35,120 nt of DNA from a virus (Duplodnaviria > Heunggongvirae > Uroviricota > Caudoviricetes): IMG/VR virus record IMGVR_UViG_2778261168_000003. One strand, 5' to 3'. Below are positions 1 to 34,833 of this stretch, in pieces (position 1 is the first letter of the stretch; every line of letters starts with the position of its first letter). Made by a program: the position numbers and the translations under genes. The notes beneath the pieces are model-generated. The model ran no database searches. It was not told the DNA's origin and was given only the letters and a program-made list of their open reading frames with translations.

Positions 1-1017
1 TCACACTTCTAGCGTTGCGAGGGGGTTGAATCTCAGAGCCGTCTCAAGATGATCGGGTGCTAAATGGGCATAGCGCATAGTCATTTTTATATCGTGATGT
101 CCGAGGATTTTTTGCAAAGCAAGGATATTTCCACCCGACATCATGAAGTGCGCCGCAAACGTATGGCGCAGAACGTGTGTCAGTTGACCGCGAGGGAGCA
201 CGATAGACGTTTTTTCCATCACGGATAAAAATTGAAAATAGCAGTCTGTAAAGAAATTGAACCCATCAAGCGCCATGATCTCTTCGTAAAGCTCTTTACT
301 GATAGGGATGCTTCTGTTTTTCTTCCCCTTCGTTCTTACAAAGGTAATTCGGTATTTGGTCACTTGCGAGCGGGTAAGATTTATTGCTTCTCGCCAGCGT
401 GCGCCTGTGCTTAGGCATATCTTGACTACCAGTGCCAGAATTGGGTCCTGACGTTTGCAATCAGCCAGCAGTTCAACAATCTGCTCATGGGTAAGCCATG
501 CCATCTCTTTTTCTGCGATGGTGAATTTTCGCATGTTCTCCAGTGGGTTCGGATACGACCATTCGCCCAGGCGGGATAGTTCGCTAAAAACACTACTTAG
601 ATAGCTTTGCTCCAGGTTAATGGTGACCGGGCTTGCTCCTTTCTTCCATTTCTCGCTGAAGTAGATCTCACCTGTCAGGCGTTTATCTCGATAGTGGGCA
701 AACATTTTAGAGGTTAGATCAGTTGCAAGGGGATTGCCCAGAGCGTCAACCATCAACAGCAGTTTGTCATAGACATGCTGCCCAGCTGTCAGAGATTTAC
801 CATGTAGTTTGAACCATAGCTCAATCACGTCTTTCAATGTCCGACGATCCACTGATTCGCCCAGCCAGGGCTTTGCTTCGGTTTCTTCCATCGTGTGACG
901 CTCAAAAGCCAGAGCTTCGCCTTTGGTGGCGAATTGTTTACGCACACGACGTCCACTACGTCCGGCGGGGTAACATTCGCAAAGCCATTTTCCTGTGGTG
1001 AGTTTTCGTACTGCCAT
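1..1017 (-). CDS. int: Tyrosine integrase (P2 Int-like)
   Basis: Minus-strand ORF; C-terminal region carries tyrosine-recombinase motifs (ARWRE, HVLRHTFA, LGHHDIKMTMRYAHL). Start chosen at the Met of MAVRKLTTGKW (338 aa), not the upstream in-frame extension to 1095. Stop codon at positions 1-3. Confidence 0.85.
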   Translation of the reverse strand: MAVRKLTTGKWLCECYPAGRSGRRVRKQFATKGEALAFERHTMEETEAKPWLGESVDRRTLKDVIELWFKLHGKSLTAGQHVYDKLLLMVDALGNPLATDLTSKMFAHYRDKRLTGEIYFSEKWKKGASPVTINLEQSYLSSVFSELSRLGEWSYPNPLENMRKFTIAEKEMAWLTHEQIVELLADCKRQDPILALVVKICLSTGARWREAINLTRSQVTKYRITFVRTKGKKNRSIPISKELYEEIMALDGFNFFTDCYFQFLSVMEKTSIVLPRGQLTHVLRHTFAAHFMMSGGNILALQKILGHHDIKMTMRYAHLAPDHLETALRFNPLATLEV

Positions 1018-1203
1018 AAAAAATGCCCTCCAGTAGAGAGCATTTTTACTGTATGTATAACCAGTGTCAATGTATGAAATCCTGCGACCATACATCTCAC
1101 TGAAGCCATAATGAAGTTAGCTATTTTTTGCTATGTGAGTATGTGACTTTTGCGGTTAGCCTGCGGCTCATTGTTATATTAGGCGCAGATATAAAAGCAA
1201 AAT

Positions 1204-1410: not shown

Positions 1411-1986
1411 TTACCTAACGTACTTAATTGTTAAACTTATAATTTTCCCAATTATTTCAACATCTTCTATCTTGCACTCGAAGGCTCTGTTTCCACCCTC
1501 GACGAAGATTCTTCCACCGGGTAAACGAGTAATGTCACGGATCGTTATTTCGCCATCAATACTTATTACCCATTTACCATCACGTATATCATCAAATTCC
1601 TTATCACAAATAAATTCAGAATTATTATCTGTGATTACAAAAAGATTCTTGAATGCCGACGGTAGAAATTCTCTATCGAAAATATAAAAACCGTCTTCAC
1701 ACAAGGCCCCATCAGATAATACATATTTAGCAACTTCCATAGTATTTGTATTACCTGAAGTTTGCTTTGAACCATGCCCGGTTGTGAGCCAATTAAGCGA
1801 GGTGCCTGTTTCAAGGGCGCACTGGATTACCCATTCTGCTGGGAATGAGTCACGCATGTAGCGTGTGGCGAGTGTACTTTTAGAGATTCCTAAATGATCG
1901 CACAACGCCTGTCGAGTCTTGAATCCATAAGCTTCTACCATGCGCTCTATAGCGCCTCGTCCGCCTTTCTCCAAATTCATGGTCAC
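1411..1986 (-). CDS. cI: Immunity repressor, 186 CI-like
   Basis: 191-aa minus-strand ORF upstream of and co-oriented with int; N-terminal HTH-like segment (LCDHLGISKSTLATRY); divergent from the apl/cII early operon as in phage 186. Confidence 0.75.
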   Translation of the reverse strand: MTMNLEKGGRGAIERMVEAYGFKTRQALCDHLGISKSTLATRYMRDSFPAEWVIQCALETGTSLNWLTTGHGSKQTSGNTNTMEVAKYVLSDGALCEDGFYIFDREFLPSAFKNLFVITDNNSEFICDKEFDDIRDGKWVISIDGEITIRDITRLPGGRIFVEGGNRAFECKIEDVEIIGKIISLTIKYVR

Positions 1987-3910: not shown

Positions 3911-4764
3911 GCACCATCCTGAAATGGGCGGGTAATAAAACCGCCATTATGTCCGAACTGAAAAAATACCTTCCTGCTGGCCCGCGACTGGTTGAACCTT
4001 TCGCGGGTTCTTGTGCTGTGATGATGGCGACGGATTACCCCAGCTATCTGGTTGCGGATATTAATCCTGATTTAATCAACCTCTATAAAAAGGTTGCTGC
4101 TGATTGCGAGGCGTTTATATCTCGTGCCAGAGCTTTATTTGAGGAAGCAAACAGGGAGGTGGCTTATTACAACATAAGGCAGGAGTTTAATTACTCCTCT
4201 GAAATTACTGATTTCATGAAAGCGGTATATTTCCTGTATCTCAATCGTCATGGTTACCGTGGGTTATGTCGCTATAACAAGAGCGGGCATTTCAACATTC
4301 CCTATGGGAATTATAAAAATCCGTATTTCCCTGAAAAAGAAATTCGCAAATTTGCAGAAAAAGCCCAGCGAGCAACGTTTATCTGCGCCAGCTTTGATGA
4401 AACGCTGGCGATGTTGAAGGCGGGGGATGTGGTGTATTGCGATCCGCCTTATTACGGTACGTTTTCCGGTTATCACACTGACGGCTTCACTGAAGATGAC
4501 CAGTATCACCTGGCATCCGTTCTTGAACATCGGTCATCAGAAGGACATCCGGTCATTGTTTCTAACAGTGACACATCCCTGATCCGTTCGCTGTATCGCA
4601 ATTTTACTCACCACTACATCAAGGCAAAACGCAGCATCGGCGTAGCAGCTGGTGAGAGTAAATCTGCAACAGAAATCATCGCTGTTTCTGGGGCGCGCTG
4701 CTGGGTGGGATTTGATCCTTCGCGTGGCGTGGATAGTTCTGCCGTGTACGGAGTGCGTGCATGA
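3907..4764 (+). CDS. dam: DNA adenine methyltransferase (Dam-like)
   Basis: N-terminal AdoMet motif (ILKWAGNK...EPFAGSCAV) and catalytic DPPY motif (CDPPYYGTF); GGAGG RBS 7 nt upstream of ATG 3907. Confidence 0.85.
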
Positions 4765-7175
4765 GCCATGCTGATATGAACAACTGCAGCGGCTTTAACG
4801 AGGCCGCCGCAGCATTCTCATGGAACAGCCCGAAAAAGGCTATTAACCCTTATCTGGACCCGGCGGAAGTTGCGCCGGTTTATGCGCTTTCAAACCTGAT
4901 CACTCTGTACGCTGCCGATAACGAGCAGGAACAACTGCGCCGCGAGGCACTGAGTGATCAGGTCTGGGAGCGTTATTTCTTTAATGAATCCCGTGATCCT
5001 GTCCAGCGCGAAATGGAGCAGGATAAGCTCATTAGCCGGGCAAAGCTGGCGCATGAGCAGCAGCGTTTTAATCCAGACATGGTCATTCTGGCGGACGTCA
5101 ACGCTCAGCCTTCCCATATCAGCAAGCCGCTGATGCAACGTATTGAATACTTCAGCAGCCTGGGCAGGCCAAAGGCTTATTCCCGCTATTTGCGTGAGAC
5201 GATTAAGCCATGTCTGGAACGACTGGAGCATGTACGCGAGAGTCAGCTATCCACTTCTTTTCGCTTTATGGCAAGCCATGAAGGGCTGGACGGCCTGCTG
5301 ATCCTGCCTGAAATGAGTCAGGCTCAGGTGAAACGCCTGTCCACCCTTGTTGCTGCGCATATGAGCATGTGTCTTGATGCAGCTTGTGGCGATTTGTATG
5401 CCACCGATGACGTTAAGCCAGAAGAAATCCGCAAAACATGGGAAAAGGTGGCAGCGGAAACCCTGCGTCTGGATGTTATTCCGCCTGCGTTTGAGCAACT
5501 CCGTCGGAAAAGAAACCGCCGTAAACCCGTGCCCTATGAACTCATTCCGGGTTCGCTGGCGCGTATGTTGTGTGCCGACTGGTGGTATCGGAAATTATGG
5601 AAGATGCGTTGCGAATGGCGGGAAGAGCAGTTGCGTGCTGTCTGCCTGGTCAGCAAAAAAGCATCCCCCTATGTCAGCTATGAAGCCGTGATGCATAAAC
5701 GTGAGCAGCGCCGTAAGTCGCTGGAGTTTTTTCGTTCTCATGAACTGGTGAACGAAGACGGCGACACGCTGGATATGGAAGATGTGGTAAACGCCAGCAG
5801 CAGCAACCCTGCGCATCGCCGCAATGAGATGATGGCCTGTGTTAAAGGTCTGGAGCTTATCGCGGAAATGCGCGGTGACTGCGCCGTTTTCTACACCATC
5901 ACCTGTCCGTCACGTTTCCATTCCACGCTAAATAACGGCAGGCCCAACCCAACCTGGACAAATGCGACGGTAAGACAAAGCAGTGATTATCTGGTCGGCA
6001 TGTTTGCTGCATTTCGTAAGGCGATGCACAAAGCCGGATTGCGGTGGTATGGCGTGCGGGTGGCTGAGCCGCATCATGACGGTACAGTTCACTGGCACCT
6101 GTTGTGTTTTATGCGCAAAAAAGACCGCCGCGCCATCACTGCATTACTGCGTAAGTTTGCCATCCGTGAAGACCGCGAGGAGTTGGGCAATAACACAGGG
6201 CCGCGCTTTAAGTCTGAGTTGATTAACCCGCGCAAAGGAACGCCGACAAGCTACATCGCGAAATACATTAGTAAGAACATTGACGGGCGTGGTCTGGCTG
6301 GCGAGATCAGCAAGGAAACGGGTAAATCCCTGCGTGATAACGCTGAATACGTTAATGCCTGGGCGTCTCTGCATCGTGTTCAGCAATTCCGCTTCTTTGG
6401 CATTCCGGGGCGTCAGGCTTACCGTGAACTGCGATTACTGGCTGGTCAGGCGGCAAGGCAACAGGGGGACAAAAAAGCAGGTGCGCCGGTACTGGATAAC
6501 CCGCGCCTTGATGCAATCCTGGCTGCTGCTGATGCTGGTTGTTTTGCCACCTACATCATGAAGCAGGGCGGCGTACTGGTTCCCCGCAAATATCACCTGA
6601 TCAGAACCGCTTATGAAATCAACGAAGAGCCGACCGCCTATGGCGATCACGGCATTCGTATTTATGGCATCTGGTCACCCATTGCAGAGGGCAAGATCTG
6701 CACTCATGCAGTGAAGTGGAAAATAGTTCGTAAGGCCGTTGACGTTCAGGAGGCGGCAGCCGACCAGGGCGCTTGCGCCCCTTGGACTCGTGGCAATAAC
6801 TGTCCCCTTGCTGAAAATTTGAACCAACAAGGGAAAGACAAATCAGCTGATGGGGATACCAGAACGGACATTACCCACATGGATGACAAGGAGTTGCACG
6901 ATTACCTACACAGTATGAACAAAAAAGAGCGCCGGGAACTGGCTGCAAGGTTACGCTTGGGGAAACCGAAACGGCGTAGAGACTACAAACAGCGAATTAC
7001 AGACCATCAACGACAGCAGCTCGTCTATGAACTGAAGTCCAGAGGATTTGATGGCAGCGAGAAAGAGGTCGATTTACTCCTTCGCGGCGGCAGTATTCCG
7101 TCAGGAGCAGGCCTGCGTGTCTTCTATCGGAACCAGCGTTTGCAGGAAGATGATAAGTGGCGGAACCTGTATTAA
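4761..7175 (+). CDS. A: Rolling-circle replication initiator gpA (P2 A-like)
   Basis: 804-aa ORF; HxH-type motif ([10 protein letters not shown]) and tyrosine motif (YIAKYISK) as in P2 gpA; ATGA overlap with dam. Confidence 0.9.
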
Positions 7176-7267
7176 TTACGCGGGTTAACAATTCGTGCTC
7201 TTAATAATACCAGGCATATCAGGCTGATGAACGTAAAAAAACGTTTTACATCAGTAAGATTATTATA

Positions 7268-7287
7268 TACTGTAAATATAAACAGTG
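7268..7287 (+). promoter_or_regulatory. LexA (SOS) box
   Basis: TACTGTAAATATAAACAGTG: perfect CTGT-N8-ACAG with AT-rich spacer, about 40 nt upstream of the Tum-like ORF. Confidence 0.6.
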
Positions 7288-7328
7288 GTTATCTATACAG
7301 TGTTGTTTGCGGTGTCATAGGAGGAAAG

Positions 7329-7517
7329 ATGCAGGACTATTTTTTGGAGTCTTTGAAGCTCCAGCGCATTGATTTTTTTCTTAAGCTTGTAGCGGCTAGT
7401 GAGTGTAGTGATGAAGAGAAGGGGCTGGCCCTGCAGTGGGTTTCTGAATTGACTGATGAACTCATGGCAAAAATCAGAAGCCACGAATACAACCGCTCAA
7501 TGGATGTCATCAGCTGA
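7329..7517 (+). CDS. SOS-controlled small protein, candidate Tum-like antirepressor
   Basis: 62-aa ORF with AGGAGGA RBS immediately downstream of the LexA box; position (after A, before cos) matches 186 tum. Assignment is by context, not sequence recognition. Confidence 0.4.
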   Translation: MQDYFLESLKLQRIDFFLKLVAASECSDEEKGLALQWVSELTDELMAKIRSHEYNRSMDVIS

Positions 7518-7527
7518 GGTGACTTTT

Positions 7528-7761
7528 ATGCGCATTGAAATAATGATCGATAAAGAGCAGAAGATTAGCCAGTCTACCCTGGACGCCCTTGAATCCGAGC
7601 TTTACCGCAATCTGCGCCCCCTGTATCCCAAAACGGTAATCCGTATCCGTAAAGGTAGCTCTAACGGTGTGGAACTGACCGGACTGCAACTGGACGAAGA
7701 AAGAAAACAAGTGATGAAAATTATGCAGAAGGTGTGGGAAGACGACAGCTGGCTGCATTGA
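7528..7761 (+). CDS. DinI-like protein
   Basis: 77-aa ORF; MRIEIMIDK...LESELYRNL...RKIMQKVWEDDSWL resembles E. coli DinI (MRIEVTIAK...ETWESADDWF); RBS GAGGTGA. Confidence 0.7.
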   Translation: MRIEIMIDKEQKISQSTLDALESELYRNLRPLYPKTVIRIRKGSSNGVELTGLQLDEERKQVMKIMQKVWEDDSWLH

Positions 7762-7874
7762 TTTTGTCAATAGACGCTTGTTTTTACTAATCAAAAAGGG
7801 TTACATATGAGTGAGAGGCGATGTCAATCAGATATCGCCTTGTTTTTTGTCAAGAAAAGAATAATAGGCTAAAA

Positions 7875-8552
7875 ATGAAAATTAATAATGTAGCGTTACC
7901 AATATCTCTTGCTGTAATCCTAACTGGTTGCGTGCCACATGCTTCTAACCGAAATATCACTGCTATTGAAGTGGTGAAGCCTGCTATTGGGCAAAGTGCT
8001 ACCGCCTACATGGGCGATCCCATTATCACATCTGCTACTGGATTTAAAACGGACGTACTAGAACTTGGTGCGGCTAATGGTGCATTGTCTTCTATCGCTG
8101 CTGGTACATATTGCAGTGAGGGGAATGGAATTTACCGCAATTATCATAACCCTCAAGCTGTTGCGTTAAAAAATCTCTATGGGCAAATCGGTAACTATGT
8201 TGATTATGTTAGTTACGATGCTGCAAAAAATGAGATATCACCGCCAAATGGTACTTCTTATACTGCATCAGAAATTTCTATCAAACGTGTTCCTGATGGG
8301 CTGTGTCGAGTTAGTAACTCATTGGTTAAGACTATCGAATACAATGGAAATGCAGGCGGTGTAATGAAGTTCACCTATCGTGAATTTGCAAACGATATGG
8401 CTCGTGCAGCATTTACAACAGATTTTTCTGTAGATTCTAAGGGAAGTGACGTTATCGCTTACAAAGGTGCCAAGTTCAAAGTGAACAAGGCTGATAACTC
8501 GTCTATTTCTTATACAATTATTTCTGGCTTTGACAAGGCTGTCACGTTCTAG
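7875..8552 (+). CDS. Lipoprotein of unknown function (cargo gene)
   Basis: Signal peptide with lipobox (ISLAVILTGC); 225 aa; AT-rich codon usage unlike the phage core. Confidence 0.6.
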   Translation: MKINNVALPISLAVILTGCVPHASNRNITAIEVVKPAIGQSATAYMGDPIITSATGFKTDVLELGAANGALSSIAAGTYCSEGNGIYRNYHNPQAVALKNLYGQIGNYVDYVSYDAAKNEISPPNGTSYTASEISIKRVPDGLCRVSNSLVKTIEYNGNAGGVMKFTYREFANDMARAAFTTDFSVDSKGSDVIAYKGAKFKVNKADNSSISYTIISGFDKAVTF

Positions 8553-8655
8553 GTTTCACGCTTGCTGAGTATGTTACGATTTTGCACATTCTGCATAAAC
8601 GCGCATGTCTATGCTGCATGAGATCGCATGATCGTTTGAGGATCTTTTGTGTTAA

Positions 8656-8680
8656 GGCCCGCCAGTTCTGGCGGGCTTTT
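8656..8680 (+). terminator. Rho-independent terminator-like hairpin
   Basis: GCCCGCCAG-TT-CTGGCGGGC stem followed by TTTT. Confidence 0.45.
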
Positions 8681-8725
8681 GCGTAGATCATGCAGGTGCA
8701 TGAAAACCACTACATAAAGCGGGCA

Positions 8726-8744
8726 GGCGTGGCGGGGATACGAG
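8726..8744. other. Candidate cos (cohesive end) site
   Basis: GGCGTGGCGGGGATACGAGCGCGCGCT resembles the P2/186 cohesive-end sequence as recalled from memory (186 GGCGTGGCGGGGAAAGCAT; P2 GGCGAGGCGGGGAAAGCAC, followed by GCGCGCT). Confidence 0.45.
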
Positions 8745-8896
8745 CGCGCGCTAAGTCATATAAGAGTTATATATTGATTTGATTGCTGGACATGCATACA
8801 GTATCGCTCTATCATCTAATAAATCTTAGAGTATTTGACAATGTTTGGATAAAATGGAACCTAACTTATTCATAATCCGCTAAACAGGGATGTCAG

Positions 8897-18127: not shown

Positions 18128-18521
18128 AGCAGTGCCTTATGTCCGCAATAACCCGGACAAACTGCATCTGTTTGTGGATAACGGTTCGCTGGTTGCCACG
18201 GGGGCCAGCTCCATGTCATGGGAGTACCGCTATACCCTGAACGTGGTGATAGAGGATTTCAGCGGCGACCAGAATCTGCTGATGGCCCCGGTTTTATTGT
18301 GGCTGCGGGATAACCAGCCCGATGCCATCAATAACCCGGCGTTACGGGAAAAGCTATTCACCTTTGAGGTGGATATTCTGCGCAACGATGTCTGTGATAT
18401 CAGCCTTAACCTGCAACTGACGGAGCGTGTGCTGGTCAGCACTGACGGCAGTGTGTCGAGCGTTGAAGCTGTAGCAGAACCCGATGAACCTGAAGAAATG
18501 TGGACGGTGAAACGTGGCTGA
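18069..18521 (+). CDS. R: Tail completion protein R-like
   Basis: 150 aa; synteny with P2 R. Confidence 0.7.
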   Translation: MRVRSETVNKPQSLRHALNKAVPYVRNNPDKLHLFVDNGSLVATGASSMSWEYRYTLNVVIEDFSGDQNLLMAPVLLWLRDNQPDAINNPALREKLFTFEVDILRNDVCDISLNLQLTERVLVSTDGSVSSVEAVAEPDEPEEMWTVKRG

Positions 18522-18966
18522 ACTGCAGAAGGTGGACGACTGGCTGAGTGTCTTGCTGACGAATCTGGAGCCAGCCGCAAGAAGCCGCATGATGCGTCAG
18601 CTGGCGCAGGAACTGCGCCGGACACAGCAGCAGAATATCAGGATGCAGCACAACCCTGACGGTAGCAGCTATGAACCGAGACGGGTAACAGCACGCAGCA
18701 AAAAGGGTCGCATCAAACGTCAGATGTTTACAAAGCTGCGCACCACCAAATACCTGAAAACTGCCGCCAGCGCCGATTCTGCCAGCGTGCAGTTTGAAGG
18801 TAAGGTGCAGCGCATTGCCCGCGTTCACCATTACGGCCTGCGTGATCGTGTAAGCCGTAATGGTCCGGAAGTGCGGTATGCAGAGCGGCGATTATTAGGT
18901 TTCAATAACGATATAATGTTGAAGTTAATTGATCTGTTAACTCGGCATTTAATTAATCCAAACTAA
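18514..18966 (+). CDS. S: Tail completion protein S-like
   Basis: 150 aa; synteny with P2 S; the last ~20 codons are AT-rich and overlap the convergent cargo gene. Confidence 0.7.
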   Translation: MAELQKVDDWLSVLLTNLEPAARSRMMRQLAQELRRTQQQNIRMQHNPDGSSYEPRRVTARSKKGRIKRQMFTKLRTTKYLKTAASADSASVQFEGKVQRIARVHHYGLRDRVSRNGPEVRYAERRLLGFNNDIMLKLIDLLTRHLINPN

Positions 18967-20158
18967 GTTTATATTTCTCAATGTGATTATTGATGTGATT
19001 AAAGAACATTCTTGGATTCCAACCTTTTGTGAGTTCAGAAATTAAATACTCATCAACCATGTCGAGTGCATAGTCTAAGGTCGGCTGTAAAAGTAGCCCC
19101 CCAATTGATCCAACTACTGGAGCTAAAGGAGATGTAATATTCGATGCCGCTAAGGCTCCAGTTAACATCATGGCAATGCTCTTAGTCGAACGGCCTAAAA
19201 AGGAATCAAAAAATCCTTTTGAGTTTGATATGCTATCAATGTAATATTTTGAGATGTCACTCGCTGAACTGCTTTGTTCTGCTTCTTTTAACCATTTTCT
19301 GAATTTTTTAGCATGACGATCATTTCTGAGCCTCATGATGTCATTCATTGGTAATCCCATTTCAATAAATGATTTACGTAAGTCAGGGAAGTTTTCAATG
19401 AGTGAAATTTGTTTGAATATCTCATTCTTATCAATTGTAATTAATGCTTGGCTGATAATTGCACTCACATTGTCTGTTATGTGGGGGCGAGCTTTTTTAT
19501 TAACGAGATATTTAAAGTTGAACAGTTCTTCTGCAACTTTTCCTAACTTTTTTTTATCGGTAAGACTCAAATCTGTTAATTTCTCTTTAGTTAAATCGAT
19601 TCCCAACTGGTTAAGTTTACCACTATTCAAAGCTGATATTGTCATGTCAACACAGTCTTTTTCTAAACCTTTGGGAATGTCTAAGTAGTTATCTCTCAGT
19701 TTTTTAATAAGATTTCTTTTTTCACCAGGTTTAAGACCTTTTCTTAATACGCTGAGCCCAGTTGAGATCGACTCCTCAGGGTCCGTATGTACGGTACTAT
19801 TAAATCTCATGCTAACTAATGGAAGAGTTCCAGGTATCGGAGATGAAATGTATCCAACATTGGCAGTCCATAATGAAAAACTAAGAGCCTCTTGGTCAAT
19901 TAATCTCTCAACATCATATAGGCCTATCTCATTAACCAGAAAAGCAAGTGGAACGTTTTCTCCATATACTTTGAAGTTTAATTTTTCATTTAAAATAAAA
20001 CCCTCAAATAGCTTTGATCTAATATTTTGAAGTTTTTTAGGTTGATCTATTATGTCTTGCTTCGTGAGCTGTGTTTCGCCAATCATAATATATTTTCGGC
20101 AGTAATCGTTTAGTTCTGTATCAAATAAAGCATTCGATATATCTATTTTTTTTGACAT
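18953..20158 (-). CDS. Cargo protein of unknown function at the S/V (P2 orf30-type) locus
   Basis: 401-aa ORF antisense to the late operon in a strongly AT-rich insert; hydrophobic stretch near the C-terminus (IAMMLTGALAASNITSPLAPVVGSIGGLLL); no recognisable catalytic motif. Confidence 0.6.
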   Translation of the reverse strand: MSKKIDISNALFDTELNDYCRKYIMIGETQLTKQDIIDQPKKLQNIRSKLFEGFILNEKLNFKVYGENVPLAFLVNEIGLYDVERLIDQEALSFSLWTANVGYISSPIPGTLPLVSMRFNSTVHTDPEESISTGLSVLRKGLKPGEKRNLIKKLRDNYLDIPKGLEKDCVDMTISALNSGKLNQLGIDLTKEKLTDLSLTDKKKLGKVAEELFNFKYLVNKKARPHITDNVSAIISQALITIDKNEIFKQISLIENFPDLRKSFIEMGLPMNDIMRLRNDRHAKKFRKWLKEAEQSSSASDISKYYIDSISNSKGFFDSFLGRSTKSIAMMLTGALAASNITSPLAPVVGSIGGLLLQPTLDYALDMVDEYLISELTKGWNPRMFFNHINNHIEKYKLSLD

Positions 20159-20333
20159 CTTATGATCCTGTTATCCTTGTGAGGACACCCTAGAGTAATA
20201 GTGAATTTATAAATACACAGCGGCATAAATTAGATCTTTTAAGATTTTTTTTCAATCTATAAATATATATAAGTGAAAAGTGATTTTTTGACTGTGAGGG
20301 CGGCAAAAGGTGTGGGACGACTTTAAAAGTCAT

Positions 20334-20351
20334 TGTGCTATTGATTACACA
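20334..20351. promoter_or_regulatory. Late-activator (Ogr) dyad TGT-N12-ACA upstream of V
   Basis: TGTGCTATTGATTACACA; shares TGTGC-ATT with the dyad upstream of FI. Confidence 0.4.
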
Positions 20352-20397
20352 AGCTTGCGACCTATCCAGGTGACTCCTGGAAAGACATTCTATAGGC

Positions 20398-20976
20398 ATG
20401 AACGCACAACTAACAGAAATCATGCGCCTTATCACCAACCTAATCCGCACTGGTGTAGTCACCGACGTGGACCGGGAGAACTGGCTTTGTCGGGTGAAAA
20501 CGGGCGAGCTTGAAACTAACTGGATCAGCTGGCTGACGCTGCGTGCAGGGAATGCCAGGACATGGTGGCGACCATCGGAAGGTGAGCAGGTGGTGGTGCT
20601 GAGCATGGGCGGCAATCTGGAAACCGCGTTTGCGCTGCCCGCCATCTATTCGAATCAGTTCGCGCCACCGTCGACGTCGGCGGACGCCTGCGTGACAGAA
20701 CATCCTGACGGTGGCTGGTTTGAATACGAACCCGCCACCGGGCGCTGGTATGTCAGAGGCATCAAATCAATGGTCATTGAGGCCGCTGACAACATCACCA
20801 TGAAAACCAGTGAGTTTGTACTGGAGGCTGACCGCACGCGCATTAACAGCGAAGTGGTGATCAATGGTGGCATTACCCAGGGCGGCGGAGCGATGAGTTC
20901 TAACGGGATCGTGGTTGATGCGCATCAGCATACTGGCGTCCTGAAAGGCGGCGATACCACCGGAGGCCCGGTATGA
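20398..20976 (+). CDS. V: Baseplate spike/assembly protein V
   Basis: 192 aa; N-terminal LIRTGVVTDVD...CRVKTGE...WLTLRAGNARTWW resembles P2 gpV as recalled. Confidence 0.8.
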   Translation: MNAQLTEIMRLITNLIRTGVVTDVDRENWLCRVKTGELETNWISWLTLRAGNARTWWRPSEGEQVVVLSMGGNLETAFALPAIYSNQFAPPSTSADACVTEHPDGGWFEYEPATGRWYVRGIKSMVIEAADNITMKTSEFVLEADRTRINSEVVINGGITQGGGAMSSNGIVVDAHQHTGVLKGGDTTGGPV

Positions 20977-22825: not shown

Positions 22826-24552
22826 GCACAAAATTTTATACCCTGCTGACGGATATTGGCGCGGCGAAACTTGCCAGCGCCGCCGCGCTCGGTGTGCCTT
22901 TAAAAATTACCCATATGGCGGTCGGCGATGGCGGCGGAACATTGCCAACGCCGGACGCAAAGCAGACAGCATTGGTAAATGAGAAACGCCGGGCTGCGCT
23001 GAATATGCTCTATATCGACCCGCAGAACAGCAGCCAGATTATTGCCGAACAGGTGATCCCAGAAAACGAGGGCGGTTGGTGGATACGTGAAGTGGGCCTG
23101 TTTGATGAGTCCGGGGCATTGATTGCCGTGGGCAACTGCCCGGAAAGCTATAAGCCACAACTGGCTGAAGGCAGCGGGCGCACCCAGACCGTGCGCATGG
23201 TGCTGATTACCAGCAGTACGGACAATATCACCCTGAAAATCGACCCTGCTGTCGTGCTGGCAACCCGTCATTATGTAGATCAACAAATAGAAATTCATGA
23301 GCAATCGCGCCGCCATCCTTCTGCGTCTTTGACAGAAAAGGGATTTGTACGTCTGTATAGCGGTGTGGAAAGCAATGATGAAACAGTCGCTGCAACGCCA
23401 AAAGCAGTGAAAATAGCGATGGATAATGCCAGCGCCAGACTGGCAAAAGACCGCAATGGTTCTGATATTCCCAATCCGGCACTGTTTGTTCAGAATCTGG
23501 GATTGAAAACGACTGTTGATAAAGCTGCATCAGCGATTCAGCCAGGAGATTATGGAATTGGCCTGGCTTATCTGAAAACCATGGGAACCAAATCGCAATT
23601 TTTTGCTTATGGTACAGCTGTCGGCTATCCAGAAGTGCCAACACATGGTGCTGGTTTCCAGGCCTGTTACAACGACAATCGACGTGCACAGATTTATGTC
23701 GCTAATGATGGCAAGATGTACTGTCGATTCAGCATGTTATCGAAAATTGCCGATGATGAAACACCGTGGAATCAGGTGTTCACCAGTGCACATTATCCAG
23801 AAGCATCAGTGAGTGTTAAAGGAATGGTGCAATTGGGGAACGATGTAAACAGCGTGTCAGAAAATGTTGCGGCGACATTGAAAGCGGTAAAAATTGCGAT
23901 GGACAACGCCAGCGCGAGACTGGCAAAGGACCGCAATGGTGCTGATATTCCTGACCCGACTTTGTTTATTCAGAATCTGGGACTTAAACCGACGGTTGAT
24001 AAGGCTGAAAGTGCTCTGCAACAGGGAGCATACGGAATCGGTAGCAATAATAACTACGAAATGGGTGAGGTTTCACAGTTTCTTGCATATTCAGGTAATG
24101 CAGATGAAGTGCCATCGAATGGTGCAGGTTTTCAGGCTGTGTATAACAAGAACAGACGCGCGCAGATTTTCATCACCGGAGCAGGGGAAATGTATCACCG
24201 TTTCAGCGGCTCTGATACGGTTAAAGACAATACAACACTATGGCGTCGGGGTGTTTGTGAAGATGAATTTTCATTTGGCAGCAATTATCACCGAATAACT
24301 GGCGGTGTGCTGAAGCAGTTTTTTAACAGTTATTTTTCCGGGGCAACTGGTGTGGTGAATAAAGAGTATCAGGTGAATTTTCCGACACCATTTGCCCGTC
24401 AGTGCTGGTACGTGATCCCCGTTTTCCGTTCGTCACACGGTGGGAGTGTTGAGGGTGTCGCCATTACAGCTATTACTGCAACTGGCTTTACTCTGAGCAT
24501 CACCGGAGATAACGGTGGATGGAATATTGGGTTTATTGCGGAGGGGGTCTGA
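22822..24552 (+). CDS. H: Tail fibre protein H
   Basis: 576 aa; N-terminal MSTKFYTLLTDIGAAKLA... tail-fibre N-domain; variable C-terminal part contains a 160-aa tandem duplication. Confidence 0.85.
   Translation: MSTKFYTLLTDIGAAKLASAAALGVPLKITHMAVGDGGGTLPTPDAKQTALVNEKRRAALNMLYIDPQNSSQIIAEQVIPENEGGWWIREVGLFDESGALIAVGNCPESYKPQLAEGSGRTQTVRMVLITSSTDNITLKIDPAVVLATRHYVDQQIEIHEQSRRHPSASLTEKGFVRLYSGVESNDETVAATPKAVKIAMDNASARLAKDRNGSDIPNPALFVQNLGLKTTVDKAASAIQPGDYGIGLAYLKTMGTKSQFFAYGTAVGYPEVPTHGAGFQACYNDNRRAQIYVANDGKMYCRFSMLSKIADDETPWNQVFTSAHYPEASVSVKGMVQLGNDVNSVSENVAATLKAVKIAMDNASARLAKDRNGADIPDPTLFIQNLGLKPTVDKAESALQQGAYGIGSNNNYEMGEVSQFLAYSGNADEVPSNGAGFQAVYNKNRRAQIFITGAGEMYHRFSGSDTVKDNTTLWRRGVCEDEFSFGSNYHRITGGVLKQFFNSYFSGATGVVNKEYQVNFPTPFARQCWYVIPVFRSSHGGSVEGVAITAITATGFTLSITGDNGGWNIGFIAEGV
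23350..24230 (+). repeat. Tandem duplication of about 480 bp (160 aa) inside tail fibre gene H
   Basis: Near-identical nucleotide runs start at 23386 and 23866 (GCGATGGA.AA.GCCAGCGC.AGACTGGCAAA.GACCGCAATGGT); protein units AAT.KAVKIAMDNASARLAKDRNG.DIP.P.LF.QNLGLK.TVDKA...GAGFQA.YN.NRRAQI. Confidence 0.8.
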
Positions 24553-24986
24553 TGAGTTATTTTTACAGTCCATCAAGAAATGCATTTTATAACAGTGAAC
24601 TGAAATCTGATTATTACGATGCTCTCGATGCGTGGCCGGATGACTGTATTGAGGTAAGTGATGCAGTCTATCAGGAGTTTTATCTTGGTTATCGGGAAGG
24701 GTACAAAATGGTTGCAGGCACTGATAACCAGCCATCATGGGAAGAACGTCCACCATTGACCCATGAGGAACAGGTGGAACAGGCAGAAATGATGAAACAG
24801 ATGCGCATTAATGAGGCTAACAACCTGATTAATGAAAAACAATGGCCATCAAAATTACAGCTTGGCAGGCTGAACGAAATGGAGACAACCAGATTTAATG
24901 CGATGCTGGATTATCTTGAGTTACTTGAAAATATTAATGTAAGTGATGCCCCGGATATAGTCTGGCCTTTATCACCAGAAGTCTGA
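24552..24986 (+). CDS. G: Tail fibre assembly chaperone G
   Basis: 144 aa starting at ATG 24552 (TGATG overlap with H stop); synteny. Confidence 0.7.
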   Translation: MSYFYSPSRNAFYNSELKSDYYDALDAWPDDCIEVSDAVYQEFYLGYREGYKMVAGTDNQPSWEERPPLTHEEQVEQAEMMKQMRINEANNLINEKQWPSKLQLGRLNEMETTRFNAMLDYLELLENINVSDAPDIVWPLSPEV

Positions 24987-25024
24987 ATACATCCCCGCGT
25001 CTTCGGGGATTCCTGTATCCGCCG

Positions 25025-30377: not shown

Positions 30378-30859
30378 TGATGGTGCTGGGATTGTACGTG
30401 TTTATGCTGCGCACCGTACCGTATCAGGAGCTGCAGTATCAACGCAGCTGGCGACATGCGGCAAACAGTCGGGTAAATCGTCGTCCGTCCACGCAGTTTC
30501 TGGGACCGGACAACGACATGCTGACGCTTTCTGGTGTTCTTATGCCGGAGATAACAGGCGGCAGGCTGTCGTTGCTGGCACTGGAGCAGATGGCAGAACA
30601 GGGGAAAGCATGGCCCCTGATTGAAGGCAGCGGCACGATTTATGGCATGTATGTGATTGAGGGACTGAATCAGACTAAAACGGAGTTTTTTCGCGATGGT
30701 ATGCCGCGCCGGATTGAGTTCACCCTGTTGCTCAAACGGGTGGATGAATCCCTGTCCGATATGTTCGGTGATCTCAGTGCGCAGCTGAATAATCTGCAGG
30801 ATACGGCAACGTCTGCATTAAGCGATATCAGTAAAACTGTGGGAGGGCTGCTGTCGTGA
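30374..30859 (+). CDS. U: Tail protein U
   Basis: 161 aa; ATGA overlap with T; synteny. Confidence 0.8.
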   Translation: MMMVLGLYVFMLRTVPYQELQYQRSWRHAANSRVNRRPSTQFLGPDNDMLTLSGVLMPEITGGRLSLLALEQMAEQGKAWPLIEGSGTIYGMYVIEGLNQTKTEFFRDGMPRRIEFTLLLKRVDESLSDMFGDLSAQLNNLQDTATSALSDISKTVGGLLS

Positions 30860-31956
30860 ATTTCAGTTCTGAACTGCTTAACAAAGGCAACAAAACTCCG
30901 GCATTCAGCATCAGTATTGAAGGGAGGGATATCACCACTGTGCTGGACAACCGCCTGATGGGGCTGACGCTGACGGATAACCGGAGCTTTGAAGCAGACC
31001 AGCTTGATCTGGAGCTGGACGACGCCGACGGAAAAATCGTGCTGCCGCGCCGTGGTGCGGTCATTACGCTGGCGCTGGGCTGGAAGGGGCAGCCGCTTTT
31101 CCCGAAAGGGGCATTCACGGTGGACGAGATTGAACACACTGGCGCACCGGACCGCCTGACCATCCGGGCGCGAAGTGCTGATTTTCGGGAAACGCTGAAT
31201 ACCCGCCGTGAAAAATCGTGGCACAAGACCACGGTCGGGGAAGTGGTGAAGGAAATAGCTGCGCGTCACAAACTGAAGATGGCACTGGGTAAAGACCTGT
31301 CGGATAAACCCGTGGATCATATAGACCAGACTAATGAGAGTGACAGCAGTTTTCTGATGCGGCTGGCGCGCCAGTACGGTGCTATTGCGTCGGTGAAAAA
31401 TGGCAATCTGTTATTCATCCGGCAGGGACAGGGTAAAAGTGCCAGCGGTAAACCACTGCCGGTGATCACTATCACACGCAAGGACGGCGACAGTCACCGA
31501 TTTACCCTGGCAGATCGCGGAGCCTATACGGGCGTAATTGCCAGTTGGTTGCATACCCGCGAACCTGCGAAGAAAGAAAGCACCACGGTGAAGCGTAAGC
31601 GCAGGACCGCAAAGCAGAAGAAAGAGCCGGAAGCGAAGCAGGGCGATTACCTGGTGGGTACGGATGAAAACGTGCTGGTACTTAATCGCACTTATGCCAA
31701 CCGAAGCAACGCTGAACGGGCAGCGAAAATGCAGTGGGAACGCCTGCAACGCGGCGTTGCGTCATTCTCGCTACAACTGGCGGAAGGTCGGGCAGATCTC
31801 TACACGGAAATGCCAGTGAAAGTCAGTGGCTTTAAACAGCCGATAGATGATGCGGAATGGACCATTACGACTCTGACGCATACCGTCAGCCCGGATAACG
31901 GTTTTACGACCAGTCTGGAGCTTGAAGTGAGGATTGATGATTTCGAAATGGAATGA
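30856..31956 (+). CDS. D: Tail protein D (late gene D)
   Basis: 366 aa; last late gene before ogr; synteny. Confidence 0.8.
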   Translation: MNFSSELLNKGNKTPAFSISIEGRDITTVLDNRLMGLTLTDNRSFEADQLDLELDDADGKIVLPRRGAVITLALGWKGQPLFPKGAFTVDEIEHTGAPDRLTIRARSADFRETLNTRREKSWHKTTVGEVVKEIAARHKLKMALGKDLSDKPVDHIDQTNESDSSFLMRLARQYGAIASVKNGNLLFIRQGQGKSASGKPLPVITITRKDGDSHRFTLADRGAYTGVIASWLHTREPAKKESTTVKRKRRTAKQKKEPEAKQGDYLVGTDENVLVLNRTYANRSNAERAAKMQWERLQRGVASFSLQLAEGRADLYTEMPVKVSGFKQPIDDAEWTITTLTHTVSPDNGFTTSLELEVRIDDFEME

Positions 31957-32046
31957 TTCTTCGCAATGGAGAACTTTTAAGTTTGCAAAATGGAATAATG
32001 CGGTATCATTATTGTGAATTTAGCAAAAATGGGGAGAACTCGAAAA

Positions 32047-32265
32047 ATGATGATTTGCCCACTGTGTGGAAGTGCCGCCCATACTCGCAGCAGTTTTCAG
32101 GTATCTTCATTGACCAAAGAGCGTTACAACCAGTGCCAGAACATTAACTGCAGCCATACTTTTGTTACCCATGAAACTTTTGTTCGTTCGATTGCAACGC
32201 CAAAAGAGTCAAATCCGGTTCAGCCGCATCCAATGAAATCAGGACAGGTGGCGCTCTCTCTTTGA
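32047..32265 (+). CDS. ogr: Ogr-like zinc-finger late transcription activator
   Basis: 72 aa from ATG 32047; CPLCGSAAH...CQNINCSHTF closely parallels P2 Ogr (CPLCQHAAH...CQNVNCSATF). Confidence 0.8.
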   Translation: MMICPLCGSAAHTRSSFQVSSLTKERYNQCQNINCSHTFVTHETFVRSIATPKESNPVQPHPMKSGQVALSL

Positions 32266-32351
32266 CGCTGCCGCCATTTTGCCGCCATCGTTAAAAAACA
32301 GTGCTTCTAACATCATGATTTTAAACAGCATAAATTTAAGGCAACAAAAAA

Positions 32352-32388
32352 CCCATCAACCTTGAACCGAAATGGCGGGGTTGATGGG
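32352..32388 (-). terminator. Hairpin with T-run on the minus strand, possible ybjL terminator
   Basis: CCCATCAACC...GGTTGATGGG stem with an A-run on the plus-strand 5' side (T-run for the minus strand). Confidence 0.35.
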
Positions 32389-32500
32389 CTCCACAAAATG
32401 GGGACATCAAAGAAAAGCAGTGGCACTAATTAAGACTGATGCCCTGCGGAAAAGTTCTGCGGTTGTGCAAAAAAATTTCATTTTCAGGGCAACTTCAGTT

Positions 32501-34186
32501 TTATCCTAATCCTGGCCATACCATGACGATGATTGTCCCTGCCAGCGTCAGCAGGACGTTGGCGATTGCGTAGGTGCCCGCATAGCCCAGCGCAGGGATG
32601 TTACTGCGAGCTGTATCACTGATGATCTCCATTGCCGGCGCGCAGGTGCGTGCGCCCATCATTGCGCCGAACAACAGTGCGCGGTTCATTCGCAATACAT
32701 AAGCACCGAACAAGAAACAGATAACCACGGGCACAAGACTGACAATTAATCCGGCAATCAACATCTGACCGCCAATCGCGCCCAGGCCGTTATTAATACC
32801 GCTACCGGCGCTCAGACCAACGCCTGCCATAAACACCATCAAGCCGAACTCTTTCACCATGCTTAATGCACCTTGCGGAATGTAACCGAAGGTCGGGTGG
32901 TTAGCACGCATAAAGCCCAGCATAATTCCGGCGAATAACAACCCGGCAGCGTTCCCCATGCCGAAACTGAATGTGCTGAACTGGAAGGTGATCATCCCGA
33001 TCATCAGCCCAATAACAAAGAAGGCGCAAAATGCCAGCAGGTCAGTGACCTGGCTGTGAATCGAGATAAAGCCGATGCGATCGGCGATGGTTTTTACGCG
33101 ACGGGCATCACCGCTGACTTGTAAAACGTCACCTTTGTTAAGCACGACGTTGTCATCTATCGGCATCTCAATCTGGCTACGAATGACGCGGTTAAGGAAG
33201 CAACCGTGATCGGTCAACTTCAGTTGTGCGAGACGTTTACCTACAGCGTTATGGTTTTTAACGACCACTTCTTCAGTGACGATACGCATGTCGAGAAGGT
33301 CACGATCGAAAACTTCTTTACCGTTACGGAAGCTGGGATCGAGTCGGGCATGGGCGTCGGGATAGCCTACCAACGCTATTTCATCGCCCATTTGTAGCAC
33401 GGCATCACCGTCTGGATTTGCCAGAATCCCGTTACGTCGAATACGTTCAATGTAGCAGCCGGTTTGTCGATAAATACCCAGTTCACGCAGATTTTTGCCG
33501 TCGGTCCAGGCCACCAGCTCCGGGCCGACGCGATAGGCGCGGATCACCGGTAAATAAACCTTACGGTTGGCATCAGTGTCCAGGCCACGTTCGCGGGCGA
33601 TTTGCTGGGCGCTGGTCTGTAAGTCCTGATGCTGCAATTTCGGCAAGTAACGCGCACCAACAATCAAACTCACCAGACCGATTAAATAGGTTAAGGCATA
33701 CCCGAGGCTCAGATTATCCAGTGCCAGTGAGAGCTGCCTGCTTTCCATGCCGGAATGACGCAGTGTATCGCCAGCACCGACCAGAACCGGTGTCGACGTC
33801 ATAGAGCCTGCTAACATACCGGCCGTCAGGCCAATATCCCAGCCAAACAGCTTACCTAACCCTAAGGCGATCACCAGCGCACTGCCAACCATCACCAGTG
33901 CTAACATTAGGTAATTTTTCCCATCGCGAAAAAAAATGGAAAAAAAGTTCGGTCCGGCTTCGACCCCGACGCAGAAAATAAACAGCATAAAGCCAAGATT
34001 AAGCGCATCGGTGTTAATGCTGAAATGTTGTTGGCCTAATAACAGCGATACGACTAAAACGCCAATGGAATTACCCAGTTGGATCGAACCAAGTCGTAAC
34101 TTTCCGAGACATAGCCCAAGCGCGAGGACCACAAATAATAACAGAATGTAATTCCCATTTAACAATTCGGCGACGTTTATATTCAC
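32501..34186 (-). CDS. ybjL: Putative transport protein YbjL (host gene)
   Basis: 561-aa multi-pass membrane protein with two central soluble domains; recognised as E. coli YbjL; neighbours ybjM and grxA as in E. coli K-12. Confidence 0.85.
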
Positions 34187-34455
34187 GGAGGCTAACTTCT
34201 TGTTTACTAGTAAGCTGTTGAAAGAAATGGTAATTTACGATAATGTTTTTTACCAGAATTCAGGGCGCAGATTCATTCAGCGCACCTAAACGATAGTAAA
34301 GTAACAATATATTTTACTAGTGTAATCACATTAGGTATCAACGGCTATATGAATTGCGTTGGCCTATATTAGCATGGAATGCGAAGCGGCTTTATCTTAC
34401 TGAACGCCACACTGGCGAAAAATGTGTTCGATAGACGCAGTGTCAGGAGGAACGA

Positions 34456-34833
34456 GTGAAACATAAACAACGTTGGGCGGGGGCAATCTGCTGTTTTGTC
34501 CTCTTCATTGTGGTGTGCCTTTTTCTGGCGACGCACATGAAAGGCGCTTTTCGGGCTGCCGGGCATCCTGAAATCGGCTTGCTATTTTTCATTCTTCCTG
34601 GAGCAGTGGCCAGCTTCTTTTCACAGCGTAGAGAAGTCCTGAAACCTCTGTTTGGCGCAATGCTGGCGGCACCCTGTTCGATGCTCATTATGCGGCTGTT
34701 TTTTTCACCGACGCGCTCATTCTGGCAAGAGCTGGCATGGTTACTAAGCGCGGTGTTCTGGTGTGCGCTGGGGGCACTGTGTTTCTTATTTATCAGTAGT
34801 TTGTTTAAACCACAGCACAGAAAAAATCAGTAA
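34456..34833 (+). CDS. ybjM: Inner membrane protein YbjM (host gene)
   Basis: 125-aa hydrophobic protein between ybjL and grxA. Confidence 0.8.
   Translation: MKHKQRWAGAICCFVLFIVVCLFLATHMKGAFRAAGHPEIGLLFFILPGAVASFFSQRREVLKPLFGAMLAAPCSMLIMRLFFSPTRSFWQELAWLLSAVFWCALGALCFLFISSLFKPQHRKNQ

Follow-up and report, generated by a model that had tools for sequence, protein, structure and literature searches.

An antisense cargo gene between tail genes S and V of a P2-like prophage: a candidate family for single-gene anti-phage defence

The DNA analysed here, IMG/VR virus record IMGVR_UViG_2778261168_000003, is a stretch of 35,120 nt (hereafter the window, meaning its full length) that contains an almost complete P2/186-like prophage, in which an open reading frame (ORF) on the opposite strand lies between the tail genes S and V. 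Gene S (positions 18514-18966, plus strand; Pfam Phage_tail_S, expect value (E) 5e-40) and gene V (20398-20976, plus strand; Pfam Phage_base_V) enclose the ATG-started ORF at 18953-20158 on the minus strand, the product of which, 401 amino acids in length, carries the accession WP_060588806.1 ('hypothetical protein') and is annotated as a coding sequence in 10 Escherichia coli genomes. An earlier note, made from the letters of the window, had described an antisense ORF of this length between S and V with a codon usage rich in adenine and thymine (AT-rich), and both statements were borne out. The guanine-plus-cytosine (GC) content of the ORF is 0.341 and that of its third codon positions (GC3) is 0.299, as against 0.555 and 0.614 in S and 0.572 and 0.653 in V.

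The borders of the insert were located by comparison with phages in which the site is empty, namely Escherichia phage 500465-1, Klebsiella phage KP12 and about 40 records with flank identities of 90-95%. In these phages the 2601-nt query is reduced to 1232 nt, with a gap of 68 nt between S and V. On the left, the alignment with an empty-site phage ends at approximately position 18912, within S, hence the last 18 or so codons of this gene (18912-18966, plus strand; GC content 0.255) represent a rebuilt 3' end that comes from the AT-rich DNA. The stop codons of S and of the cargo ORF converge, with an overlap of 14 nt. The C-terminal tail of S differed at every occupied locus compared, suggesting that recombination at the slot repeatedly rewrites the end of S. 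Searches for transposon or insertion sequence signatures around the insert, in the form of terminal or direct repeats, found none.

On the right, the strongly AT-rich DNA stops near position 20290, and the remaining interval, 20291-20397, has a GC content of 0.47. This interval is part of the V promoter region rather than of the cargo, in that a pattern search revealed a TGT-N12-ACA dyad upstream of V (20334-20351, plus strand), with a similar dyad at the equivalent place in an empty-site phage. The V gene of P2 heads a late operon of its own, and the Ogr-dependent late promoters contain a TGT-N12-ACA dyad. We therefore take the dyad at 20334-20351 to be a probable Ogr-type activator site of a late promoter, and to mark the right border of the cargo. 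The earlier note had placed the ORF inside the late operon, which is imprecise: the slot was correctly located with respect to its flanking genes, but constitutes the boundary between the transcription unit ending in R and S and the promoter region of V. Its position between two late transcription units is probably the reason that insertions are tolerated there.

The ATG of the cargo gene is separated from V by an AT-rich upstream region of 239 nt. Within it, we infer that the gene has its own promoter in the interval 20159-20290 (minus strand), which has a GC content of 0.27, contains an imperfect palindrome at 20201-20218 and includes a Shine-Dalgarno-like AGGA 8 nt ahead of the ATG.

That the gene filling the S-V (orf30) slot of this P2-like prophage is a horizontally acquired, non-essential cargo gene, or 'moron', is nearly certain. 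The exact gene was found in 10 of 5426 complete E. coli genomes, always in the S-V slot of a prophage, whilst the S and V flanks are present in 1050 of these genomes. In an evenly spaced sample of 51 E. coli prophages the slot was empty in 35, or about two thirds, and the site matches the classical orf30 site of P2, in agreement with the position of a non-essential P2 cargo gene that the earlier note had proposed. P2 has three classical regions of horizontal acquisition, of which orf30 is one (PMC3091744), and P2 ORF30 itself is encoded by a 261-bp gene of unknown function (PMC6823313).

The cargo of P2-like phages at the same S-V position, namely P2 ORF30, the DUF6216 gene of E. coli BL21 and a 741-bp ORF of phage R18C, likewise consists of a single AT-rich, non-essential gene, often antisense, that is swapped for unrelated genes in relatives. 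The window protein differs in size from P2 ORF30 (401 as against 87 amino acids), and its family also occurs outside P2-like phages. A relationship with the BL21 DUF6216 protein was considered and rejected (hhalign probability 0.3%).

Occupied S-V slots of E. coli prophages were found to hold single genes, in either orientation, encoding DUF6216 (as in BL21), DUF2971, FRG, TIR or SIR2 proteins, or hypothetical proteins. Among five such loci (L044-L048), the TIR (266 amino acids) and SIR2 (407 amino acids) genes lie in the sense orientation, and the FRG (311 amino acids), DUF2971 (289 amino acids) and DUF6216 (268 amino acids, BL21) genes are antisense. Four of the five alternative S-V genes tested matched PADLOC models for defence or candidate defence systems (PDC-S66/SpbK, ThsA/LmuA-like SIR2, PDC-S15 and PDC-S31), and the slot thus looks like a distinct hotspot for single-gene defence. 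Hotspots among the tail genes of P2 have been reported to carry defence systems, with the majority of the unknown hotspot genes tested proving protective (PMC13586616). The screen of Rousset et al. 2022 covered the cos-adjacent hotspot only, the S-V slot being outside its scope.

Homologues of the window protein form a large and widespread family. A word-indexed search retrieved 69 homologous clusters, in none of which a Pfam domain was present; all named clusters were designated 'hypothetical', save one to which NCBI gives the name 'glycine zipper family protein'. When the word-indexed search was repeated with a divergent alignment, no further annotated relatives were gained. An exhaustive profile search retrieved 1139 clusters (at 50% identity) at E <= 1e-3, with 428 at <= 1e-10 and 180 at <= 1e-30, and full-length homologues in many taxa reached E values down to 1e-180, well past anything that chance would produce. 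These were found in Enterobacterales, Vibrio, Aeromonas, Pseudomonas, Acinetobacter, Marinobacter, Burkholderiales, Arcobacteraceae, Cyclobacteriaceae, Victivallales and Neomoorella, a span that takes in Proteobacteria, Bacteroidota, Lentisphaerota and Firmicutes. Leaving aside shorter sequences that seem to be partial, members are colinear and 350-480 residues in length, and therefore display no domain fusions. The ratio of nonsynonymous to synonymous substitution rates was 0.08-0.12 among close alleles, to which this measure applies, synonymous sites being saturated when the window gene is set against the nearest homologues that are not identical to it. The ORF thus encodes a real, conserved protein that is under purifying selection.

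Two records within the family were anomalous. In Candidatus Burkholderia verschuerenii the homologue (L017, 9180-10176) is split into two ORFs of 174 and 143 amino acids, and is apparently a pseudogene in a reduced leaf-symbiont genome. The contig bearing the homologue labelled Leifsonia sp. (L013) has a GC content of 0.39, which is implausible for an actinobacterium, and this contig is probably contamination or mis-binned.

An AlphaFold2 model built from a 45-sequence alignment had a mean predicted local distance difference test (pLDDT) score of 81.6 and a predicted template modelling (pTM) score of 0.77, with residues 336-370 alone falling below a pLDDT of 50. In this model an N-terminal alpha/beta domain (approximately residues 1-165) is followed by a middle part made up of helices and then by four C-terminal helices. 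Four blocks are conserved (residues 51-75, 121-135, 301-330 and 361-386), and are interspersed with variable stretches at 25-45, 185-200, 220-250, 260-275 and 290-300. The most conserved part of the alpha/beta domain, codons 48-135 (19754-20017, minus strand), encompasses the first two blocks, with F-E52 and K63-V-x-G66-E-N68-x-P-L in the former, H-x-D126-P-E-E-S130 in the latter, and an LWT motif; here invariant or near-invariant columns and the lowest column entropy coincide with pLDDT values above 90, and the region has no structural neighbour. The third block contains Y306-I-D, K-G-F-F and G322-K-x-T-K-S. The fourth is a C-terminal helix (codons 361-386; 19001-19078, minus strand) that constitutes the lowest-entropy window of the protein and reads LDxxD369EYLxSxLTKG379W380xP382RxF, in which D369, G379, W380 and P382 are invariant in the main family alignment, P382 being the sole invariant column in 56 divergent members.

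Between the third and fourth blocks lies the sole hydrophobic segment of the protein, residues 326-358 (codons at 19085-19183, minus strand), a hairpin rich in glycine, alanine and serine, or 'glycine zipper', that is putatively membrane-inserting. The earlier note had remarked on a hydrophobic C-terminal segment, and the Kyte-Doolittle hydropathy maximum does fall at about 326-358, both in the window protein and in 35 of 45 aligned homologues. The family consensus of this segment is GAGxGxxIxGxxGxxxGA. Weak matches to Pfam glycine-zipper families were detected in 4 of 56 distant members, the best being to C19orf12-like (9e-6), followed by Gly-zipper_Omp and Gly-zipper_YMGG (3e-3).

Searches of Pfam and NCBIfam with the window protein returned no match, and PHROGs gave nothing better than E 0.17; as PADLOC was equally silent, the earlier description of a protein with no recognisable motif was upheld. 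Homology to a structural or housekeeping phage protein was likewise not found, in that neither a tblastn search of 50,697 phage genomes nor a Foldseek search of BFVD (at E <= 0.001) produced a match, and a profile search of the PDB was empty. The top Foldseek hits, none of them significant, were the P-loop GTPases GBP, atlastin and GIMAP. An assignment as a GTPase was rejected, since K-V-x-G-E-N, although conserved, does not constitute a Walker A motif. The literature was searched under the accession WP_060588806, for defence proteins with a glycine zipper and for work on the S-V slot, and offered no characterisation; no paper was found to mention the accession, which is also absent from the DefensePredictor supplements.

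The genomic contexts of the homologues were then compared. The S-V slot of P2-like prophages of Pantoea, Erwinia, Raoultella and Citrobacter, and that of IMG/VR contigs, is likewise filled by antisense homologues with identities of 40-70%. At the Citrobacter locus the cargo is far more diverged than its flanks, with 43% identity as against 81-89% for S, V and R. In another P2-like phage (L051, 6114-8185) a family member follows gene A ahead of the portal gene, that is, in the A-Q (old/tin) hotspot, and in Rahnella a member lies beside the CI repressor at the end of a prophage (L049, 6337-8185); the members at these two loci are preceded by unrelated genes, of 243 and 208 amino acids, respectively. 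In a P4-like satellite of Klebsiella and Enterobacter (L002-L005), a member is located in the integrase-proximal hotspot, in the stretch from the integrase to the AlpA-DUF927 primase genes, where it adjoins a complete Septu system (PtuA, 1e-126; PtuB, 1.5e-82). The family accordingly recurs in three P2 hotspots and in the P4 hotspot. The satellite hotspot (6853-11389) also harbours a 213-amino-acid unknown gene, along with a gene of 81-91 amino acids beside the integrase. Some of the satellite copies have a DDE_3 transposase insertion, and one genome has a DarT/NADAR (DarTG) pair immediately beyond the integrase.

Of the other members, that of Neomoorella adjoins a type III restriction-modification pair and a PhD/PIN toxin-antitoxin pair, that of Aeromonas lies within an integrative element, and those of Marinobacter, Victivallales and Albidiferax have PADLOC-positive neighbours. 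Matches to PDC-S33 and PDC-S01 were found among neighbours elsewhere, and the 141 neighbour ORFs scanned included ShosTA, NucC and methyltransferases. Another member is situated near IS3 and RHS genes. An all-against-all BLAST comparison of the neighbours at 22 loci identified no conserved partner gene beyond the syntenic Pseudomonas copies, suggesting that the protein works alone. In most of the other loci checked the homologue was AT-shifted relative to its surroundings, for example with a GC content of 0.42 as against 0.63. This comparative context strongly links both the slot and the family with anti-phage defence.

On such contextual grounds, the balance leans towards some anti-phage role for the cargo protein. 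More specifically, this stand-alone S-V cargo gene is most likely expressed in the lysogen, and its product most likely acts as a single-protein anti-phage defence, which would work through a sensor-effector mechanism, a reading to which we assign a probability of roughly 0.5. Transcription in the lysogen would proceed from the gene's own AT-rich upstream region, and the antisense orientation would shield it from the silent late operons, with transcriptional collision arising only during lytic growth. Residues 1-325, which have a novel alpha/beta and helical fold, with acidic and polar motifs that are conserved and helical patches that vary, would sense a cue of infection and hold the C-terminal effector in check. 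On activation, the hairpin at 326-358 and the KGWxP helix would insert into, or oligomerise in, the inner membrane, dissipating the membrane potential or blocking a membrane step such that the incoming phage fails, by abortive infection or exclusion. The earlier note had remarked that slots of this type often contain single-gene abortive-infection or exclusion proteins, an interpretation that is partly supported. Such a role is what we infer from context together with the glycine-zipper segment, and a membrane effector as the specific mechanism is offered as a tentative possibility. Similarly tentative is the extension to the whole family, whose members might be self-contained immune proteins of a new fold, each a sensor and a pore in one chain, in which an N-terminal sensor frees a glycine-zipper hairpin to form or gate a membrane lesion on infection, and which are shuttled among P2-like phages, P4-like satellites and defence islands.

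Several observations weigh against a defence protein of this kind. The window protein matched 0 families of PADLOC-DB v2.0.0 at E <= 1, and Foldseek searches of the PDB and BFVD with the AlphaFold model returned nothing at E <= 0.001; given neither a defence hidden Markov model nor a structure match, the assignment of function is one of guilt by association. Most of the 141 neighbour ORFs are unrelated to defence, the Pseudomonas copies adjoin an AraC regulator and genes of acyl-CoA metabolism, and one P. fluorescens copy lies near PAAR/amidase genes. A consensus scan found no canonical sigma-70 promoter upstream of the cargo gene, and no intrinsic terminator. The proposed effector is itself equivocal: the hydropathy of the segment is moderate in the window protein (Kyte-Doolittle 1.2-1.3, as against up to 1.8 in homologues), its zipper is degenerate (GALAASNITSPLAPVVGSIGGLLL), the consensus being clear only family-wide, and the protein has no match at E <= 1 to the Pfam glycine-zipper families PF13488, PF13441 and PF20721. 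The hydrophobic segment is also modelled by AlphaFold with low confidence (over 336-370), and instead of forming a transmembrane hairpin it may be an element that is buried or peripheral.

Amongst the alternatives, superinfection exclusion, whereby the protein would reside constitutively in the inner membrane by means of its hairpin and block genome entry with neither sensing nor cell death, is unlikely. The prophage location, the presumed expression in the lysogen and the presence of the exclusion genes Z/fun, tin and old in P2 accessory slots would all be compatible with it, and a hairpin would leave the two soluble conserved parts together on the cytoplasmic side of the membrane. However, a conserved soluble domain of 325 residues with invariant polar positions exceeds the needs of the known small exclusion proteins, and the family extends to diverse phyla and envelope types, including the Gram-positive-type Neomoorella, and to non-phage islands, a distribution that a generic intracellular trigger fits better than a phage-specific block of entry.

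P2-like phages use their accessory slots for mixed purposes (bioRxiv 10.1101/2024.10.15.618418), and the gene could instead confer fitness or lysogenic conversion, such as an envelope or stress function, independently of phages. The homologues located among metabolic or regulatory genes, and the failure of any defence model to match, would be in keeping with this possibility, which we nonetheless regard as improbable, since the family is found repeatedly beside bona fide defence systems, in the P2 and P4 hotspots enumerated above, it is distributed patchily, by horizontal transfer and with an AT shift, and the alternative cargo of the S-V slot is defence-like.

An accessory of benefit to the prophage in its own lytic cycle, either an anti-defence protein or a modulator of lysis or the membrane, might be supposed from the location among late genes, beside the lysis and tail modules, and from the membrane-active appearance of the segment, but is very doubtful. 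Anti-defence genes are rare in P2 and undetected in P4 (PMC13586616). The gene is antisense to both late units, and so is not co-transcribed with them; most of the close relatives, which are viable phages, do not carry it, and family members occur in satellites and chromosomal islands that contain no structural genes. Least probable of all is a toxic membrane protein for addiction or interbacterial competition: glycine-zipper segments are known in pore-forming toxins, and homologues lie near the PAAR/amidase genes and an RHS protein, but there is no signal peptide or secretion-associated domain, nor a conserved immunity or antitoxin neighbour, a conserved soluble domain makes up the bulk of the protein, and its contexts are mainly phages, satellites and defence genes.

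Several known systems share features with the window gene. The Old, Tin and Z/Fun proteins of P2 and the hotspot systems described by Rousset et al. 2022 and Vassallo et al. 2022 (PD-T4-x, Rst_) are also prophage cargo between core genes and are often encoded by a single gene, and one member of the window family sits in the same A-Q hotspot as old and tin. These systems protect the lysogen against other phages, whereas the window gene is a candidate for such a role, and its product has no match to any of their PADLOC models. In its proposed action, a short hydrophobic helical segment that would perturb the inner membrane after a signal of infection, the protein can be likened to lambda RexB and to the 2TM/SLATT effectors of CBASS and other systems. 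Those effectors rely upon separate sensor or signal proteins or on recognised domains, whereas the window protein is one chain of 400 amino acids, with no match to SLATT or any other Pfam family. Proteins of the glycine-zipper families (Gly-zipper_Omp, PF13488; Gly-zipper_YMGG, PF13441; C19orf12-like, PF20721) have a similar glycine- and alanine-rich hairpin of the GxxxG type, about 30 residues in length, but the zipper makes up 8% of the window protein, the 325-residue N-terminal part of which is without a counterpart in those families. As every sequence, profile and fold test failed, the window protein belongs to none of the Old/Tin/Fun, RexB or 2TM/SLATT families. It is classed here as a new family of single-gene defence candidates from prophage hotspots, and not as something categorically new, since the concept is already an established one and the protein a candidate for it.

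An uncharacterised gene at a P2 hotspot will not surprise the specialist, and should it prove not to be protective it will be one more unexplained moron. Nevertheless, no source of new bacterial immune systems is at present richer than prophage and satellite hotspots, and this candidate, a single gene that is native to E. coli and has no partner gene, is cheap to test. Its family, of more than 1,000 clusters, has been missed entirely by Pfam, PADLOC and NCBIfam, and its confident model resembles nothing solved. Were the protein to protect, it would add a new fold, and possibly a new coupling of sensing to membrane damage, to the defence repertoire, and the annotation of defence genes would improve in many genomes. 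The S-V slot, with its alternative single TIR, SIR2, FRG and DUF2971 genes, would then be a third productive hotspot of P2.

The remaining genes of the prophage are arranged as follows. An integrase gene (1-1095, minus strand) and a gene for a CI-type repressor (1411-1986, minus strand) precede the replication gene A (4761-7175) and the portal and terminase genes (10583-13386, minus strand), after which the capsid, lysis and tail genes extend up to D (30856-31956). Just past D, the last phage gene, lies the host small RNA RybB (32343-32421, minus strand; Rfam, 105 bits), the only structured RNA found in the window, followed at 32501-34833 by a ybjL-like transporter gene (Asp-Al_Ex/TrkA_C) and ybjM. 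These host features place the right end of the prophage and its attachment (att) site at approximately 32,000-32,340.

The A-Q (old/tin) hotspot of the window prophage (7200-10550) is likewise AT-rich, with GC contents of 0.38-0.44, and encodes the PADLOC candidate two-gene system PDC-M03. PDC-M03A (8897-9811; E 2e-122) has a weak HipA_C kinase-like match, and PDC-M03B (9808-10548; E 3e-93) contains a HIRAN domain. An ORF of 243 amino acids in the same hotspot (7821-8552) had no Pfam or PADLOC match, and when compared with the 243-amino-acid ORF that follows gene A at L051 was found to be unrelated. Within 23500-25000 the GC content falls to 0.43-0.46, in the 3' part of the tail-fibre gene H and in the tail-fibre assembly gene (Caudo_TAP, 24519-24986), as would fit a host-range cassette that is exchanged separately.

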